DNA of 26,994 nucleotides from a virus (taxonomy: Duplodnaviria > Caudoviricetes): IMG/VR virus record IMGVR_UViG_3300037470_000016, positions 1-26,994 of that record; one strand, given 5' to 3'. The translations under genes and the position numbers were made by a program. Positions within the stretch are counted from its first letter, which is position 1. Every line of letters begins with the position of its first letter. The notes beneath the pieces were generated by a model, which saw only the letters and a program-made list of their open reading frames with translations, ran no database searches and had not been told where the DNA came from. Shown one piece after another: positions 4,613 to 14,400 of this stretch.

Positions 4613-4670
4613 GCTCATGCCGTGATGCCAGTCTTCACTACAGTACTGCCTGCTGGCGACAGCGTACCGG

Positions 4671-4741
4671 TACCCAATGACGGAATCGAACCGCCGTGAT
4701 CTCTTTGTAAGAGAGACGTTCTCCCATTGAACTAATCGGGC
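4671..4741 (-). tRNA. tRNA-Val(UAC)
   Basis: Cloverleaf: GCCCGAT/ATTGGGT acceptor, TCTCT-CTTACAA-AGAGA, GTTCGATTC T-loop, A73. Confidence 0.9.
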
Positions 4742-4812
4742 TTGTCGTCCGGTAGTCGGGAGTATTTCGCCCGACTCAATACAATCAGCCCCGGTTGCCC
4801 GGCTGATCAAAG

Positions 4813-4879
4813 TAGACCTGCGGGGAGTCGAACCCCGATCTCTCGCTTAGGAGGCGAGACTGCGTCCTTCACCAGGTCA
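4813..4879 (-). tRNA. tRNA-Arg(CCU), non-canonical with reduced D-arm
   Basis: TGACCTG/CAGGTCT acceptor, TCTCGC-CTCCTAA-GCGAGA, CGGGG-TTCGACT-CCCCG; D region GTGAAGGACGC; 67 nt. Confidence 0.75.
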
Positions 4880-4880
4880 G

Positions 4881-4951
4881 CTCTCATACCAGGATTCGAA
4901 CCTAGATCCGACGGTTAACAGCCGCCTGCACTACCCTTGTGCTATACGAGA
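4881..4951 (-). tRNA. tRNA-Asn(GUU)
   Basis: TCTCGTA/TATGAGA, GGCGG-CTGTTAA-CCGTC, G73. Confidence 0.9.
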
Positions 4952-4957
4952 TTGAGG

Positions 4958-5323
4958 CTAGCGCTTTGGGCGCTTGCCGCTCCCCTTGTTGCGACCCTTA
5001 TAGGTGTCTAGCTGACTGTCGCAGTTGGGGCAAATCATTCGGAGGTTTGGCCTGCTGTGGTCGGTTGCATCTCCAGAGATGTGATCGAGGATAAAGACTA
5101 GTTCTCGATCGTTGTGAATCTGACTGCATCCGCAGATGTCACACAGGCCGCTCTGATCATTCAGAACGTATACTCGCATCCAGTGAGTGCGGCTGGTGTG
5201 ATACTGACCCACGCCAGTTTCCAGCCATGCCTCAATCTTGCCAGCTATCAGCTTGGCCTGCTGGCACTTGGCGTTGCAGTAGGATGCCTTGACGTCAGAT
5301 CCACAGTGCTTACACTTATTCAC
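4958..5323 (-). CDS. HNH endonuclease (free-standing homing-endonuclease type) within the tRNA cluster
   Basis: CKHC..YCNAKC zinc motif; CDICG...LDHISGDATDHSRPNLRMICPNCD HNH motif. Confidence 0.9.
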   Translation of the reverse strand: MNKCKHCGSDVKASYCNAKCQQAKLIAGKIEAWLETGVGQYHTSRTHWMRVYVLNDQSGLCDICGCSQIHNDRELVFILDHISGDATDHSRPNLRMICPNCDSQLDTYKGRNKGSGKRPKR

Positions 5324-5324
5324 G

Positions 5325-5399
5325 AGCCTGATGCAGGAATTGAACCCGCGTACTCCTACTTACTAGGTAGGTGCTAAAGCCAGCATTAGCTAATCAGGC
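5325..5399 (-). tRNA. tRNA-Thr(AGU)
   Basis: GCCTGAT/ATCAGGC, CCTAC-CTAGTAA-GTAGG; G1-C72, C2-G71 and G35U36 fit Thr identity. Confidence 0.85.
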
Positions 5400-5400
5400 G

Positions 5401-5474
5401 TGATTCAGGTGGGACTTGAACCCACATTCTCCCGGGGTAAGAGCCCGATGCACTTCCATTTGTGCGACTGAATC
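5401..5474 (-). tRNA. tRNA-Lys(CUU)
   Basis: GATTCAG/CTGAATC, TCGGG-CTCTTAC-CCCGG, A73. Confidence 0.9.
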
Positions 5475-5478
5475 AAGG

Positions 5479-5550
5479 TACCTCACGAGGGACTCGAACC
5501 CCCATCACCAAGTTCGTAGCCTGGTGTCCTGTCCTTTGAACGAGTGAGGC
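5479..5550 (-). tRNA. tRNA-Arg(ACG)
   Basis: GCCTCAC/GTGAGGT, CCAGG-CTACGAA-CTTGG. Confidence 0.9.
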
Positions 5551-5552
5551 GG

Positions 5553-5623
5553 GGTGACCAGAGGGAATCGAACCCTCGCAGCCAGGGACACAACCTGGCA
5601 GGCTACCATTACAACATGGTCAC
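5553..5623 (-). tRNA. tRNA-His(GUG)
   Basis: GTGACCA/TGGTCAC, C73, GCCAGG-TTGTGTC-CCTGGC; encoded -1 base is T, not G. Confidence 0.85.
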
Positions 5624-5625
5624 AG

Positions 5626-5696
5626 TGCCGATCCGTGGAATCGAACCACAGCCCCCGGGTTTTCAGGCCGGTGCTCTACCACTGAGCTAGAAGGGC
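5626..5696 (-). tRNA. tRNA-Phe(GAA)
   Basis: Canonical D and T arms, loop CTGAAAA; two acceptor mismatches and C31-C39 mismatch. Confidence 0.8.
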
Positions 5697-5699
5697 AAA

Positions 5700-5734
5700 G
5701 CCACGCTTGTGCGCCATGGTGCGTGACGACCATG
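5700..5734 (-). ncRNA. Predicted H-type pseudoknot filling the Glu-Phe spacer
   Basis: CATGGT-C-GTCACGC-ACCATG-GCGCACAA-GCGTGGC: 6-bp and 7-bp crossing stems. Confidence 0.5.
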
Positions 5735-5737
5735 AAG

Positions 5738-5809
5738 TACTCCATCGGGGAGTTGAACCCCGCCTAGCAGGTTGAGAACCTGATGTGCTAACCGCTACAC
5801 AAATGGAGC
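5738..5809 (-). tRNA. tRNA-Glu(CUC)
   Basis: GCTCCAT/ATGGAGT, CAGG-TTCTCAA-CCTG. Confidence 0.9.
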
Positions 5810-5814
5810 AAGAG

Positions 5815-5891
5815 AGCCTGTGGAGGGATTCGAACCCTCACTTGTACGGTTTCTAAGACCGACGCCTCTACCAATTGGGACATACACAGGC
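5815..5891 (-). tRNA. tRNA-Leu(UAG), short variable region, U73
   Basis: GCCTGTG/CACAGGC, CGGT-CTTAGAA-ACCG, Leu-like D-loop CCAATTGGTAGA. Confidence 0.8.
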
Positions 5892-5937
5892 ATTGTCCAC
5901 GCTGTGGACATCACGTCACGACGAAGTCGTGATGCGG

Positions 5938-6009
5938 CGCATATGAAGGGAATCGAACCCTCGACGAGTCGCTCGACAGGCGACCGTTCTACCATTGAAC
6001 TACATATGC
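5938..6009 (-). tRNA. tRNA-Asp(GUC)
   Basis: GCATATG/CATATGC, GTCGC-CTGTCGA-GCGAC, G73. Confidence 0.92.
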
Positions 6010-6012
6010 AAG

Positions 6013-6087
6013 TGGTACAGAAGCAGGGAGTTGAACCCTGATCGTCGGTGTATCAGACCGATGCTCTAACCATTGAGCTACCTCTGA
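6013..6087 (-). tRNA. tRNA-Ile(GAU)
   Basis: TCGGT-CTGATAC-ACCGA; U1-U72 mismatch; the only tRNA here with encoded CCA. Confidence 0.9.
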
Positions 6088-6088
6088 G

Positions 6089-6157
6089 TGGAAACGGAGG
6101 GAATCGAACCCGTCCTGAGCCAGTTTGCAAAACTAGCCTGTCACCTTGACCATCCCC
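6089..6157 (-). tRNA. tRNA-Ala(UGC), non-canonical with reduced D-arm
   Basis: GGGGATG/CGTTTCC with G3-U70 and A73 (Ala identity); GCTAGT-TTTGCAA-ACTGGC; D hairpin GTCA-AGG-TGAC. Confidence 0.8.
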
Positions 6158-6161
6158 ATTG

Positions 6162-6229
6162 AGGCCCACCTCGGAGTCGAACCGAGCTGCGTCCCTTTGC
6201 AGGGGACGCCACTACCTTAGTAGCAGACC
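6162..6229 (-). tRNA. tRNA-Cys(GCA), non-canonical with reduced D-arm
   Basis: GGTCTGC/GTGGGCC, U73; GCGTCCC-CTGCAAA-GGGACGC; D hairpin ACTA-AGG-TAGT. Confidence 0.8.
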
Positions 6230-6233
6230 AGAG

Positions 6234-6314
6234 TTCCTCGTCTTGGAATCGAACCAAGCAAGCCGTCGCGCGACGCAGGGGTTACAGCCCCGCTTGTGTC
6301 CCAGCACCCAAGGA
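6234..6314 (-). tRNA. tRNA-Tyr(GUA), long variable arm, reduced D-arm
   Basis: GCGGGG-CTGTAAC-CCCTGC, variable hairpin GTCG-CG-CGAC, A73. Confidence 0.8.
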
Positions 6315-6315
6315 G

Positions 6316-6398
6316 CGGAGAGCAAAGGAGTCGAACCCTCGGGGGTTACCCCGGCCTGGTTTTCTAGACCAGTTGGGCACCACTGCCCGCTGCAATCC
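6316..6398 (-). tRNA. tRNA-Ser(AGA)
   Basis: CTGGT-CTAGAAA-ACCAG, long variable arm GGGG-TAA-CCCC, G73, 5-bp D-stem with 4-nt loop. Confidence 0.82.
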
Positions 6399-6402
6399 AA
6401 AG

Positions 6403-6475
6403 CTGCTCCCCCAGGATTCGAACCCAGAACAAGTGGTTCAGAGCCACTCATGTTACCAAATTACACCAAGGAGCA
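6403..6475 (-). tRNA. tRNA-Gln(CUG)
   Basis: TGCTCCT/GGGAGCA, AGTGG-CTCTGAA-CCACT, U1-A72, G73. Confidence 0.92.
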
Positions 6476-6480
6476 TCGAG

Positions 6481-6551
6481 CACATCGCCAAGGAATCGAA
6501 CCCTGTCCAAGAGGTTTGGAAGCTCTTGTGCTGCCAGTACACCAGCAATGT
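6481..6551 (-). tRNA. tRNA-Trp(CCA)
   Basis: ACATTGC/GCGATGT, G73, loop TTCCAAA; C31-C39 mismatch. Confidence 0.85.
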
Positions 6552-6552
6552 A

Positions 6553-6623
6553 TGGCTGGACTGGGATTCGAACCCAGGTTTCCGAGTTATGAGCACGGCG
6601 TGGAACCTCTCCACTATCCAGCA
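6553..6623 (-). tRNA. tRNA-Met(CAU), initiator-like
   Basis: U1-C72 mismatch, G2-C71, C3-G70, A73; CCGTG-CTCATAA-CTCGG. Confidence 0.85.
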
Positions 6624-6624
6624 G

Positions 6625-6695
6625 AGCCCCACCTCGGGTTCGAACCGAGGAGCCTAGTTTGGAAGACTAGTATGTTACCACTACATCAGTGGGGC
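6625..6695 (-). tRNA. tRNA-Gly(UCC)
   Basis: GCCCCAC/GTGGGGC, U73, CTAGT-CTTCCAA-ACTAG. Confidence 0.92.
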
Positions 6696-6702
6696 AAGTC
6701 GC

Positions 6703-6774
6703 GTACGGCGGGTTGCCAGCACCCTCCATGGTCTAATCTAGACCAGCCAGGAATCGAACCTGGTATCTCCGTAC
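6703..6774 (-). ncRNA. Circularly permuted tRNA-like RNA (Y RNA YrlA-like tRNA-mimic module)
   Basis: GTACGG-AGATA-CCAGG(TTCGATT)CCTGG-CTGGTCTA(GAT)TAGACCATG-GA-GGGT(GCTGGCA)ACCC-G-CCGTAC: T arm, closed acceptor stem, D arm, open anticodon stem. Confidence 0.7.
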
Positions 6775-6777
6775 TCG

Positions 6778-6848
6778 TGCGGAAGGCAGGAATCGAACCC
6801 GCGTTGCCTGTTCCCAAAACAGGTGTGATGCCATTTCACTACATCCAC
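6778..6848 (-). tRNA. tRNA-Pro(UGG)
   Basis: CCTGT-TTTGGGA-ACAGG, GTGGATG/CTTCCGC, A73. Confidence 0.88.
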
Positions 6849-9310: not shown

Positions 9311-10615
9311 TTACCCTCCGATCATCCCGAAATCCTGAAGTACCTTCAGTCCAGTAGACATCATGTTGTCCTGAGCCTTGCTGGACCTGACCCATCGGGG
9401 GTCATTCCTCACCTGGTTCTGGAACGTTACCGTATCCATTCCGACAGGCTTGCCCTGCTGATTCACACCATTCAGGGCCCGCTTGATGAGCGGGTCCGAG
9501 AGCGTGATATTGGAGAAGGGAATCTCCAGATCATCAGCCATCTGCTGCATGTATGGCGAAGCGATATCCATCATCGTCTGGCCAGCCTGTAGCTGAGCGG
9601 CGTAACCAGGGTACGTGCTGACCGCCTGGTTGGTGATCTGGTTCTTGAAGTCCTGCTCCGTAGCCATGCCGCGACCGATCAGCTGAGCCTGGTTCTTCAC
9701 GGTCTGCTTGTCCAGGGTGACGCCCTGAGTGAATGCGAACTGCTTGATCATGTGCTCATACTGTCCAGCCTGACCATTCAGTGTCGAGCCGTTCCCCTGG
9801 AAGGTAATGTAACCACCAAGGACATTCCTGAGCCCGGCCTCATCGAGGCCGGTCTTCAGTACCTGCTCAGCAATCTTTCCGATCTTGCCCTGGGGGATCG
9901 CTGCACCCATCTCTGCCGAGAGCTGCATGACCTGGACCTTGGCTGCGGAGAGCTTCGCCTCCCATGTTGCGGGGTCAGTGGACTTCTCTTGCGCAGCCTT
10001 GCGCATGGTGTCGGAGTTCTCCTTCCACCACTTGGTGTTCCGAAGTTCAGCCTGGAACTTCTCCTTGGTCCATGTCTCACCAACATAGCTGCCGAACAGA
10101 GTCTTCAGCTCTGGGATGGAGTTGAGGAAGGAGTAGGCAAAGCCGTAACTGGCGGCCAGCTCCTCGGGGCTCAGGGACGGGGCTTCAGTGTCCGTAGTGC
10201 TCCACGAGTCGGCCTTGCCTCCACCCTCAATACCGCTGACACGACGACCACCCATGAAGGCGTTCTGGTAGTAGCCATTCGTCATGTCCGTGATCTCGAC
10301 ACTCTTGCCAGGCCTTGGTGCATGGAGCATCTTACCGTTACCGAGATAGAGCCCGACATGGTCAGGCCCTCCCGTCTCAGGATTGGTATCGAAGAACACC
10401 ATATCGCCAGACTGAAGCTGGTTCATGCCGACAGACTTGCCCTCACCGATCTGACTGTAAGTCGTCCTGGTGACGTTGATGCCGAAATGCTTGTAGACCT
10501 GCTGGACAAGGCCGGAGCAGTCCACTCCGCTGGAGAGGGAGTTGCCTCCCCACACGTAGGGAGTTCCGGCCCACTGCTTGGCCCACTCCATCAGTTCTGC
10601 TCCGTTGACTGCCAT
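9311..10615 (-). CDS. Virion-associated NlpC/P60 peptidase domain plus internal-virion domain
   Basis: GTPYVWGG...GVDCSGL...DHVGLYLGNGKMLHA. Confidence 0.9.
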   Translation of the reverse strand: MAVNGAELMEWAKQWAGTPYVWGGNSLSSGVDCSGLVQQVYKHFGINVTRTTYSQIGEGKSVGMNQLQSGDMVFFDTNPETGGPDHVGLYLGNGKMLHAPRPGKSVEITDMTNGYYQNAFMGGRRVSGIEGGGKADSWSTTDTEAPSLSPEELAASYGFAYSFLNSIPELKTLFGSYVGETWTKEKFQAELRNTKWWKENSDTMRKAAQEKSTDPATWEAKLSAAKVQVMQLSAEMGAAIPQGKIGKIAEQVLKTGLDEAGLRNVLGGYITFQGNGSTLNGQAGQYEHMIKQFAFTQGVTLDKQTVKNQAQLIGRGMATEQDFKNQITNQAVSTYPGYAAQLQAGQTMMDIASPYMQQMADDLEIPFSNITLSDPLIKRALNGVNQQGKPVGMDTVTFQNQVRNDPRWVRSSKAQDNMMSTGLKVLQDFGMIGG

Positions 10616-11445: not shown

Positions 11446-14400
11446 CAGCTTCCTCCTTGTGCGAGGGTGTCAGTGATATCAACCTGGACGGGGGCGGCCT
11501 CTTGGCCGACCACCGTCGCGTCGGACTGTTCGAGCCTCTCCTGATCCTCCGCGCTGTAGTGAGTGTTCATGTTGAATCCCATGTCAGTGGCGAAGTACCT
11601 GGAGTGAACCCATGCGAACCTGGTGTCAGACTCGATGAGACTCATGGTCAGCTTGTCCCACCAGTTCTTAAGGTCGTAGTTCGCGTTAGCGGTGATGTCG
11701 TCAGACCCGCCATTCATCTTGCGAATGACGAGAGCCTGCTGCATGTCCTTGCGGTACGACAGGTAACCCTTCAGGGTGTAGATGTCAGAACGCTGTCCGA
11801 TGGTGCCGTCAGGCATCATGGACTTGGCCCACAGCTCAGGATCGTCTACGACCTCCTGAAGCTCAAGCGCGGTGCGATCGTACTTACCCTTATCGAGGGA
11901 GCTGAACTCAGCCTCCCAGGACTTGTTGTAGTACGGATTCTTCGTACCGTCAGGCAGGTAGATGGACGTCAGAACCATGTTGATGGCCTGCCGCTTCGCC
12001 TTCAGATCCTCGGCTCCATCGTCGTCGAAGGTCTGAAGTCCACGGTCGAACAGTGCGGCATTGACTCCCTCCATCATGGAGTTGTAGTCACGCCATCCGC
12101 GAGCAGTCTGTGCCTCCGTCCATGCCTCCTGTGCGCCCATCTGGGTGCGCTGAGTGTCGGTGGACGCAGTGCCGGTAGAGTGCGTCTTCTGGTAGAAGTA
12201 TGCACCCTCCGAGTAGGTTCCGTCACCCTCGGATCCAACGATCAGGCCAGCATACTTGCTGCCGACCTTGTCGATCAGATCCTTGTAGTACTTGGACATC
12301 TTCACGGACTCGGCAGTGGGCCTTAGCCCACTGTTGTTCTTGCTCATGGACTGAGAGAACATGTAGAACGACTCGCCGTACTTGTCGTAGAACTTCTCGT
12401 CAGCACTGTTGGGGTCGAGCTTCTGCATGCGCTGGAACTCGTCACGGAAGAACTGGTAAGGGTCCTGCCCGTTGACAGAGAACGGCAGCGACCAAGCTGC
12501 CGCAGTCCTGAAGATGGTCCAGCGGTCTGCCCGCTCCTTCAGTTCCTTCCAGGTGGGCTCGGTGGTCCTGAGACCCTGCTCCCACTTGTAGTTCTCCACC
12601 TGCATCATGTAGAGCAGTGCACGCTGCTTGGTCTCACCCATGTCATCGGTTGCATCGCCGAGGCGCTTGCCGGTATTGGGGTTGACGAAGTCGGTCCAGC
12701 TGTCCTGTGGTCCGAACGGAAGTACACCGAGCTTCTTGCTCCAGTCGGCGAACTTGGGATCGTCCTGAGCGAAGTGGTTGGCAGAGATCTGAACGTACGG
12801 ACCTACACCAACAGGAAGCGCGCCGTCTCCATGGTTGAGCACCAGCTCTACGCTGGACATGGGAACAGTCAGCGCAGCATCCTCATCCAGGCCAAGCTCC
12901 TTGTTCAGGGCCTTGCCTCCCAGATACTCTGGGATCTGGATGAGCATCTTCCGCTCAGAGTACTTGATGAGCTTCTTCTCGCCAGTGGCTGGATCAGTCA
13001 CGTGGCCGGACGCGTCAACAGTGTTGCCGTCCTGATCCACCGTAATGCCTGCCCTAGTGGGCATGCCGTACGTCTGAGCCACTCGTGCAAGCACGTCAGG
13101 CTTGTCGGAGATGATACGTCCCCAGCGGTTCCACGACTCCTGCTGCGCTCCGAAGAATGCACCGAAGTGACGCATCATGTACGCCATCTTCGTCTCGTGA
13201 TCCATGGTGAACGTGAACTTCTTCACGTCATCAAGAGCGCCCTTGCGGGCGTTCTTCTCAAGGATCTTCCTGGTGGACTCGTCCACGTGGGTGACACCCT
13301 GAGACCTCATGATCTGCATCTGCTGAGACAGATGAGCCTTGTAGCTCTGACCGAACAGCGGATTACGCAGGAGCTTGGTTGCCGGGATCTGGTTGGCGAT
13401 GTTGTACCAACCGTTGATCGACTTGTCCAGCAGCTTCGAGACTGCACTCTCTCCAGTCGCGTAGCGGAATGCCTCGGCATTGACCATCGGGCGGTTGGCC
13501 TGAGGGATTGCCTTCAGCGTCTCAGGATCCAGCTTGCCCTGAAGTACGGACGCCCTGACGGCGTCCATTCCTGGCATTGCCGGGTCCAGCACATAGTCCA
13601 CCTGAGCCTTCACTCGCTGAGCAAGTTCATAGTCAGGCATGTGCTTGAGACCGATGTCAGTCCTGTAGCGAAGCCCCTCTGGGGTGCTTCGCATCCAGTT
13701 GACCAGCTGACCCTCATCGAGACCCTCAAGGACCTTACGGCCAACACTGCTCTGGCCGATCTGATCGTTGAGCAGACGAGTCCACGCCTCCATGTGCTTG
13801 TCTGCTCCATGGCTGGCTGGAGTGATGTTCTCCCAGTCTGCACGTCGCATCCTCTTGAGGTACCAGTCGGACTGAGATCCCATGAGGTTCTGGAAGTTCC
13901 TCTGGCCTGCTGCAAGGTCCTTGTACAGCTCTCCCTGCTTGCCTCCGTAGGCTGGAGCGAATACCTCTCGCCCAACCTTCACGTCACGAGTCTGGGCGCC
14001 GTAAGCGACCAGCGATCCGTAGTCGGCATGAGTCTGCCTGGCTGCTGCGATGTCGTCAGTGAGATCCTTCAGGCCATCCTCAAGGGTCTGGATCTTGTGT
14101 GGGTTCTGGCCGAGAGCCTTCTCCCTCAGTAGATCATTCCTGATCTCGGTGTGGACAACAGACATCTCGTCGATGTGCTGAGCCAGCGCCCCCTCGGTCT
14201 GCCTTGCGGCAGCCACGGAGTCGCTTGCCCACTTGCCACGGATGAAGTCCTCCATCATGACCTTGCCGCCACTGGCTGCACGCTGCATCATGGCCAGTCC
14301 GCCGAAGCGTGCTACCTGGCCAAGGAAGTCATCGGCAAGTGCCCTTGGGGCGTAGCCGAGACGGAACAGCTGAGCGAACTTCCAAGTGGTGGACAGGGTG

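Follow-up and report, generated by a model that had tools for sequence, protein, structure and literature searches.

Four transfer RNA (tRNA) genes of a bacteriophage, those for alanine, arginine, cysteine and tyrosine, were found to share a compact core that departs from the canonical tRNA plan. They lie in 26,994 nucleotides (nt) of viral DNA, IMG/VR record IMGVR_UViG_3300037470_000016 (a 27-kb virus record, 59% complete), which is referred to below as the window. The original prediction, made from the DNA letters, was that these tRNAs combine a miniature D hairpin with a lengthened anticodon stem; the observation is confirmed here, and it is wider than first described. When tRNA genes were located with a purpose-written parser anchored on the T loop, all four were recovered on the minus strand at the predicted place, each with a core of 14-15 nt:

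4813..4879, minus strand: tRNA-Arg(CCU), 67 nt, anticodon 4851-4849, compact core
6089..6157, minus strand: tRNA-Ala(UGC), anticodon 6129-6127, compact core
6162..6229, minus strand: tRNA-Cys(GCA), anticodon 6200-6198, compact core
6234..6314, minus strand: tRNA-Tyr(GUA), anticodon 6285-6283, compact core

The acceptor and anticodon stems of canonical tRNAs are 18-21 nt apart. From the acceptor stem to position 27, the four genes have only 14 nt (Ala and Arg) or 15 nt (Cys and Tyr), against 18-22 nt in the other 17 tRNAs of the same array, and they lack the canonical U8-N9 connector, the D stem at 10-13/22-25 and the 5-base-pair (bp) anticodon stem. Their shared plan consists of a linker of 0-1 nt, a 3-bp D stem, a loop of 5-6 nt containing GG, a 3-nt spacer and a 26:44 pair, the hairpin being most uniformly drawn as 3 bp with a 5-nt NNGGN loop (6 nt in Tyr) and the spacer. 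Ala and Arg both have a 0-nt linker, the 3-nt spacer and a 6-bp anticodon stem, the former with a D stem of 3(-4) bp and an AAGGT loop, the latter with 3 bp and an AAGGA loop that includes A20. Cys has U8, which may pair with 24, a D stem of 3(-4) bp, an AAGGT loop and a 7-bp anticodon stem; Tyr has a 0-nt linker, a 3-bp D stem, a CTGGGA loop, the 3-nt spacer and a 6-bp anticodon stem. Beyond the extended stem the variable loop is 4 nt in Ala, 3 in Arg and 2 in Cys, and in Tyr it is a long arm starting from 45. All four keep the 7/5 acceptor-T branch, the T-loop motif and a 7-nt anticodon loop with U33 and purine 37, and the other predicted elements, namely GG, the TTCGA loop, G3.U70 with A73 in Ala, and U73 in Cys, were likewise present; the discriminator of Arg and Tyr is A73. 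Exceptions to regular elongator stems are a U1.U72 mismatch in Arg, a G7.A66 purine-purine pair in Tyr, and a single bulged C in the T stem of the window Ala.

These features are not errors of sequencing or assembly, because contigs from other runs carry the same letters, with 0 differences over Ala, Cys and Tyr in run X2 (6070-6420) and over Arg(CCU) in runs X3 (4780-5381) and X5 (4813-4956), and because a separate IMG/VR phage (L102) has an identical Ala, including the bulged C.

The fold was then examined by covariation. In the search pattern for Tyr, nothing was fixed except three loops (D, anticodon and T) and a single A of the spacer, and none of the pairings under test was included; the parser gave a small bonus to any D hairpin, and forms of other length were set aside. 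This pattern retrieved 119 loci in IMG/VR (60 of 64 parts scanned) and 29 in GTDB, and the genes with the 15-nt core amounted to 87 distinct sequences, from which 69 distinct 41-nt segments were used for covariation. Each of the three D pairs and 26:44 was paired in 87/87 sequences, mostly with 4-5 pair types, and in 69/69 segments, with two-sided changes at every one of them. The covariation score was 0.947, compared to 0.267 for shuffled alignments (0/500) and 0.10-0.164 for slid ones, and 99.4% of the cells were paired, whereas a D stem in the canonical register was merely 36.7% paired and was rejected. Mutual information recovered the same pairs, together with the variable helix from 45, and ranked 7:66 among the real pairs; this position is A.G or G.A in 85 of the 87. 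Pair 49:65 is unpaired in 22/87, and a minority may therein shift the branch register. A stand-in for U8-A14 or for the Levitt pair was looked for and was not shown, the candidate positions being invariant. An additional helix joining the spacer to the variable arm's 3' side, suggested by the minimum-energy fold of the window gene, was rejected for lack of conservation.

The other three isotypes gave evidence of different kinds. For Arg, RNAalifold on the 15 equal-length genes (of 19 distinct) returned the zero-linker fold and the 6-bp anticodon stem unprompted, with two-sided changes at 16 of 20 pairs. In Cys (6 distinct sequences) both 26:44 and 25:45 covary, and the D stem is damaged in one. 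The Ala D stem is paired in 17/17 but nearly invariant, with zero two-sided changes, and its assignment therefore rests on conservation and analogy. The triloop drawn for Ala and Cys depends on an invariant A-U closing pair and lies beyond the reach of covariation. The acceptor, T and anticodon stems covary throughout the compact sets, and the anticodon, U33, purine 37, T loop and T-stem pairs 50:64 and 51:63 are conserved in nearly all compact copies.

It had also been proposed that the anticodon stem is extendable to 6 bp in all four tRNAs and to 7 in Cys, and this was borne out. The sixth pair, 26:44, is formed by every distinct compact sequence of Tyr (87/87), Ala (17/17) and Cys (6/6) and by 17/19 of Arg; since 158/600 canonical tRNAs of these loci form it too, this pair alone is not diagnostic, but the combination is. 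The seventh, 25:45, is paired in 6/6 Cys (GC and AU), 9/17 Ala, 11/19 Arg and 18/87 Tyr, counts by which a 7-bp stem was rejected as a general trait outside Cys. Folding of single sequences gave weak evidence (z of -0.96 for Ala, -1.30 for Arg, -2.24 for Cys and -0.07 for Tyr), and the minimum-energy fold of Tyr differs from the cloverleaf. Overall, covariation across the Tyr, Arg, Ala and Cys sets strongly supports the proposal of a selected alternative fold, and the search for uncompensated decay in orthologues revealed instead stems that were compensated near-perfectly. Judged by these alignments, the compact fold is under selection.

By its genes, the source is a Streptomyces phage resembling the Beephvirinae (cluster BF): the major capsid protein is 94% identical to its counterpart in Streptomyces phage Stella, and the array stretch is 72-77% identical to that of Beephvirinae phages, in parts of the region only. 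On account of these capsid and tRNA-region similarities, the host is inferred to be a streptomycete. The array has the following position:

4669..6848, minus strand: 21-gene tRNA array, between a structural-module gene and the scaffold and major capsid genes, on the same strand as these

The placement upstream of the scaffold and capsid genes and the gene order are shared with 12 named Beephvirinae. A set of 33 related arrays was therefore assembled from the window, these 12 named phages and 20 IMG/VR loci. In it, 25 arrays have a compact Ala, 5 a canonical one and 2 a slid, full-length one, and the Ala slot of 1 was unparsed; Arg(CCU) has 14-15 nt in 30/33; for Tyr, 25 genes have 15 nt and 4 have 16-17 nt; for Cys, the compact form occurs in 10 arrays and a 7/4 type in 18; and Trp has 15-17 nt in 20 and is canonical in 3, including the window. 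In every array where they were parsed, Asn, Val, Ile, Asp, Gly, Gln, Arg(ACG), Lys, Glu, Thr and Met had the canonical form. The commoner Cys allele (18/33 arrays; e.g., L022:3094-3162 and L042:3065-3135) is a different odd design, with a 7-bp acceptor and a 4-bp T stem (11-bp branch), a 5-6-bp D stem, a 6-bp anticodon stem and U73.

A capsid-gene tree of 21 arrays contains two sister pairs (L019/L020 and L030/L029, separated in the capsid gene by 0.008 and 0.03 changes per site) in which one member has a compact Ala and the other a canonical one in the same slot. Since the forms alternate between near-identical sisters, they replace each other. A full-length Ala with a slid D stem is found at L011, L027 and L028, and a similar form was met in the window itself, where the original prediction had called His partly similar:

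5552..5623, minus strand: tRNA-His(GUG), canonical length of 18 nt with U8, slid D-stem register, G26-C44

This description proved apt, as the His D stem is paired 4/4 in the slid register against 2/4 in the canonical one and is joined by G26-C44, yet U8 and 18 nt are retained; to go by its sequence, the gene is likely an intermediate form. The slid His and slid full-length Ala together suggest a path to the compact core by register slip and then loop deletion. The window His also has U at 37, which recurs in most relatives, and no encoded G at -1.

The compact plan is not confined to the Beephvirinae. It was seen in Trp(CCA), Val(CAC) and Arg(CCG) of the cultured mycobacteriophage Myrna (L236:7935-8002, 9567-9635 and 11699-11768, respectively) and, in other arrays, in Arg(ACG), Met, Trp, Gly(UCC), Gln(UUG) and His, so that it spans at least nine amino-acid types in unrelated arrays. 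Viral Arg(CCU) genes retrieved by a spacing pattern (51 distinct) had 14 nt in 20, 15-16 nt in 2, 18-19 nt in 25, and were unclear in 4; several of the compact ones are outside the Beephvirinae, since their contigs, at 99-178 kb, are too long for that group. Among the 29 GTDB matches for Tyr, 25 are compact and 4 of an 8/4 type, and for 22 of these 25, further tRNA genes lie no more than 1.5 kb away; among the carriers are Streptomycetaceae, Polyangia, a planctomycete and a Mycobacterium bin. In 3/3 Streptomyces genomes with a compact Tyr, canonical Ala, Arg(CCU), Cys and Tyr are also present, and the compact bacterial copies are therefore accessory. The plan was not seen in host housekeeping tRNAs, either in these three genomes or among the best matches listed for 121 host-order genomes scanned with an Arg covariance model (42 candidates scored per genome, 601 weaker matches apart), which were mostly of canonical length (72-73 nt) with few exceptions; one shorter top match, from an unpublished genome, was left aside.

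Other searches marked the limits of this spread. Comrade (cluster BK) had 0 of 29 parsed tRNAs under 18 nt; a plasmid search with the compact Tyr gave no match; and close sequence matches in cultured phages were restricted to the Beephvirinae. A fixed Ala/Cys pattern retrieved mostly canonical Cys; of the viral Cys genes found with it, 0/94 distinct had 14-15 nt and 3 had 17 (8 of 64 parts scanned), and compact Cys is therefore uncommon among viruses at large. Other remodelled cores were met on the way. A second odd tRNA-Tyr, with an 8/4 branch and a 5-bp D stem (L123, L128, L239, L244, L248, L262), sits in small prophage-like clusters, Pseudomonas and Halomonas genomes included, and is adjoined by compact Gly(UCC) in L128 and L193; mycobacteriophage Ala(UGC) genes (L236:8829, L237:9856) have C at position 8 and a triloop on a D stem of 6 bp.

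The compact tRNAs retain what bacterial synthetases would be expected to read. G3.U70 and A73 are present in 17/17 Ala, GGA (with A20) and A73 in 19/19 Arg, U73 in 6/6 Cys, and A73 in 87/87 Tyr distinct compact sequences; these match the bacterial identity determinants as far as tabulated in the consulted part of PMC9976931, where A20 is reported as the main determinant for arginyl-tRNA synthetase. The codons concerned are in demand: in the 14 window genes, GCA makes up 158/623 Ala codons (25%) and AGG 73/281 Arg codons (26%), against 5.5% and 6.3% in a Streptomyces sample (65 open reading frames, 100 kb of one genome), i.e., they are 4-5 times commoner in the phage.

Known systems offer partial parallels, the nearest being mammalian mitochondrial tRNA-Ser(UCN) and tRNA-Pyl. 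The original prediction likened the fold to tRNA-Pyl and mitochondrial tRNA-Ser(UCN), which agrees with the text of PMC7609411 available to us. With the type I mitochondrial tRNA described there, the four genes have in common a short connector, a small D loop, a 6-bp anticodon stem, a short variable loop, G18G19 and the T-loop motif. They differ in a connector of 0 nt in Ala, Arg and Tyr (1 in Cys) in place of the one connector nucleotide and 3-nt variable loop of type I, in the 3-nt spacer after the D stem, in the 7 bp of Cys, and, for Tyr, in a purine pair at 7:66 and a long variable arm attached to the compact core; moreover, they belong to phages and would presumably depend on the enzymes and ribosomes of bacteria. 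With tRNA-Pyl, especially that of Methanomethylophilus alvus (no connector, 4-nt D loop), they share the 7/5 branch, the 0-1 nt connector, the small D loop and the 6-bp anticodon stem. tRNA-Pyl has CUA, G73, G1:C72 and a 3-nt variable arm, in contrast to the UGC, CCU, GCA and GUA anticodons and A, A, U and A discriminators found here, which are standard anticodons with matching identity elements, and to variable loops of 2-4 nt or long; unlike the tRNA-Pyl of M. barkeri and D. hafniense, the compact tRNAs keep both G18G19 and the T-loop motif. A trade between the D-stem and connector length and that of the anticodon helix is described for both families in the accessible parts of PMC7609411 and PMC5389517, the former adding that tRNA-Pyl is used by the ordinary translation machinery. 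By analogy, the present fold would work like the compact core of type I mitochondrial tRNA and tRNA-Pyl, while it belongs to neither family.

The allo-tRNAs, (8/4) tRNA-Ser/His and selC* tRNA-Cys of PMC5389517 resemble the four genes in their occurrence in bacterial and phage tRNA clusters, and its supplement, as far as consulted, has some allo-tRNAs without connector 9-10 and possibly with a D triloop; however, allo-tRNAs have an 8/4 or 9/3 branch, a long D stem with tetraloop and a long variable arm, whereas the compact genes are 7/5 with a 3-bp D arm. The annotated Beephvirinae arrays have the same array, position and isotypes, the structure going unremarked in the available portion of PMC9753666, and D-arm differences of a tRNA-Tyr in a Mycobacterium avium array are mentioned, in what is accessible of PMC12803027, without detail. 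Within the open-access literature consulted, PMC5370408 included, no description of the compact architecture in phages was found, although related forms may appear among the cloverleafs drawn by Mukai et al. and in the M. avium paper.

It had been suggested that standard scanners may miss or mis-call such tRNAs, and this is supported. Against Rfam RF00005 (E up to 1), Ala, Cys and Tyr were unmatched and Arg scored 30.1 bits. Default ARAGORN missed Ala, recovering it only at -ps80, gave Arg a wrong 5' end overlapping Asn, and drew other D arms for Cys and Tyr; it nevertheless called three of the four. The covariance model, built from 15 Arg genes, placed 67-nt compact genes of other isotypes directly after its training gene, but was rejected as a clean discriminator, since canonical tRNAs (42.9 bits) came close behind the compact others (43.8-46.8 bits). 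In public annotation, the unannotated slots of the JXY1 record are Trp, both Ser, Tyr, Cys, Ala and Arg(CCU), exactly the seven non-canonical ones; Tyr in Zeigle and Arg(CCU) in Stella and FlowerPower are also unannotated; a Myrna gene readable as compact Trp(CCA) is annotated as Leu; and most SEA-PHAGES records annotate compact genes as ordinary tRNAs.

What, then, is the compact core for? Over all explanations that involve translation, the compact tRNAs are, to go by their conserved parts, in all likelihood functional. We give about an even chance to the explanation that the four are charged by host synthetases and used on the host ribosome, the core being kept to alter the surfaces read by tRNA-cutting defences. 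In structural terms, the D stem starts at 8 (or 9) and the last spacer base pairs with 44, giving an anticodon helix of 6 bp (7 in Cys), as the sequence comparison shows. The longer helix would offset the shorter D stem and the lost U8-N9, so that the L shape and the anticodon-to-CCA distance are kept; Steinberg and colleagues are said to have formulated such a layer-compensation rule. GG and TTCGA would form the G18-U55/G19-C56 elbow for RNase P, for delivery bound to EF-Tu, and for the ribosome. The array would be transcribed with the late genes and cut to single tRNAs, and the CCA, which is not encoded in the array genes, would be added by host enzymes; the tRNAs could then serve GCA, AGG, UAC/U and UGC/U codons once host tRNAs are depleted. 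A more general version, in which phages possess a second tRNA architecture (connector-less, with a 3-bp D stem, an NNGGN loop and an anticodon helix of 6-8 layers) that is compatible, for nine or more amino acids, with the usual synthetases and ribosomes of bacteria and is exchanged at array slots as an arms-race allele invisible to shape-reading host tRNases, is put forward tentatively, as somewhat doubtful.

The selective driver is the weakest step. Escape from tRNA-targeting defence is favoured because unrelated designs alternate at the same slots and because AriB reportedly needs contacts distant from its cut site: according to the consulted text of PMC12409363, T5 tRNA-Lys resists AriB, restoring the cut site alone is insufficient for cleavage, and distal contacts including the D loop are proposed. 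The phage tRNAs already linked to anti-defence (T5 tRNA-Lys versus PARIS, T5 and SP15 tRNA-Tyr versus retron Eco7, and anticodon-loop variants of mycobacteriophage C1) are likewise phage-encoded, host-redundant and different from the host copies, but they escape by point changes near the anticodon or by over-expression, and an altered core is not mentioned in the portions of PMC10264068, PMC12409363 and PMC11555353 consulted.

Several points weigh against this explanation. The published evasion signature, in the part of PMC10264068 consulted, sits in the anticodon loop, and the anticodon loops of the four compact tRNAs are close to those of the host. For retron Eco7, over-expressed tRNA-Tyr of host sequence rescues as well as the phage tRNA-Tyr (PMC11555353, in the same part), and therefore dose can outweigh shape. 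Remodelled slots are 7 of about 22, and the isotypes are mostly ones whose synthetases read little of the D arm, so that tolerance alone could explain the choice. The T-stem bulge of the window Ala is not found in the other 16 compact Ala sequences. On the side of codon demand, array-bearing relatives use both codons more than relatives in which no array was seen (medians GCA 0.24 vs 0.14, AGG 0.23 vs 0.17; 19 vs 47 loci at equal G+C content at third codon positions), but the comparison is not phylogenetically independent and counts some merely truncated loci as having no array, and the canonical Gly(UCC) with GGA shows the same array-linked trend. Finally, some intact-looking allo-tRNAs are not used in translation, according to the consulted part of PMC5389517.

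Among the other explanations, one is that these are working tRNAs whose core was selected for self-sufficient folding, with extra Watson-Crick pairs replacing tertiary contacts and core modifications (at 8, in the D loop and at 46); maturation would be quick in the late-infection cell, and defence would not be involved. It is in keeping with the replacement of U8 and most D-loop positions by covarying pairs, and a non-canonical structure reportedly stabilises mitochondrial tRNA-Ser(UCN), in a paper known by its title from the reference list of the Mukai supplement. Most slots in the same array, however, retain a canonical core, and the poor in silico folding of Tyr alone is not what it would lead one to expect; this explanation appears unlikely.

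Neutral drift of the core in codon-supplementing tRNAs, by register slip and short deletion, with purifying selection maintaining function only, is also rather unlikely. Intermediates do exist (the slid Ala of L011/L027/L028 and the slid His of the window), sister phages hold canonical and compact alleles side by side, and the codon match fits supplementation as presented in the accessible part of PMC9753666. But drift sits poorly with a plan that turns up for nine or more amino acids, in arrays unrelated to each other, while unseen in host housekeeping tRNAs, and with the alternation of several non-canonical designs per slot (for Cys, 7/4 in 18 and compact in 10 of 33), which looks like diversifying selection.

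Less probable still are non-translating mimics, i.e., decoys (charged or not) that inhibit tRNA-targeting effectors, or donors to non-ribosomal users of aminoacyl-tRNA. The array also holds a permuted tRNA mimic, PMC12409363 raises the idea that phage tRNAs, when over-expressed, inhibit competitively, and charged but untranslated irregular tRNAs are known from PMC5389517, each as far as consulted; on the other side stand the conserved anticodon-loop and T-arm features listed above, the over-use of the matching codons by the phage, and the one-for-one substitution by canonical alleles. Decaying pseudogenes with D-arm deletions, as low scanner scores and the T-stem bulge of the window Ala might suggest, are largely refuted by the near-perfect compensated pairing of all stems in 87 Tyr, 19 Arg, 17 Ala and 6 Cys sequences, and are very improbable.

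The array contains three further elements of note:

4958..5323, minus strand: HNH endonuclease gene inside the array (PHROGs HNH matches, E 3.7e-17)
6316..6398, minus strand: tRNA-Ser(AGA), without U8, with a 5-bp D stem and tetraloop, a different non-canonical type
6696..6778, minus strand: circularly permuted tRNA-like RNA, unannotated, between tRNA-Pro and tRNA-Gly

Ser(AGA) can be drawn as 8/4, like an allo-tRNA, or as 7/5 (8:65 pairs in 16/17 and 49:65 in 17/17), whereas Ser(GCU) of relatives (L001:992-1074 and orthologues), a slot lost in the window, fits the 8/4 allo-tRNA with 8:65 paired in 18/19 versus 12/19 for 49:65. The permuted RNA is ordered as T arm, acceptor-like hairpin and D arm inside a covarying closing helix, a topology shared with the YrlA Y RNA in the consulted part of PMC4201824. 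It occurs in 15 distinct versions among the loci retrieved, is deleted or reduced to a hairpin in some relatives, and has no Rfam match. YrlA is recognised by a GNCGAAN0-1G motif and a Ro60/TROVE gene within 4 kb; the exact Ro-binding motif is absent from the permuted RNA, and TROVE was found in 0/4 complete Beephvirinae genomes while present in the Comrade control.

The HNH gene is missing from the related contig of run X5, which has 181 other bases in its place, and a promoter scan gave nothing exceeding chance. The 14 window open reading frames (5920 codons) contain zero AGA and zero TTA codons, and the array is without Arg(UCU) and Leu(UAA) tRNAs; its tRNA-Leu(UAG) (5891-5814) has a short variable region of 6 nt. 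The array includes A34 anticodons in Thr(AGU) (5399-5324) and Ser(AGA) (6398-6316), both rare in bacteria, and ACT accounts for 122/399 Thr codons in the phage compared to 2% in the Streptomyces sample.

Apart from mitochondria, tRNA-Pyl and Sec-like tRNAs, the U8-N9 connector and an anticodon stem of 5 bp are regarded as nearly universal. That both are dropped in a natural, deeply covarying family of tRNAs for standard amino acids shows to what extent the tRNA core of bacteria can be reconstructed, and it implies that phage tRNA counts are under- and mis-called. The compact tRNAs may also serve as small natural scaffolds for the design of suppressor and orthogonal tRNAs. The natural pairs of compact and canonical alleles in near-identical phages, together with cultured carriers (such as Manuel, RosePharie, Immanuel3 and Treat) that have laboratory hosts, would make the question of why phages carry tRNAs testable by shape rather than dose.

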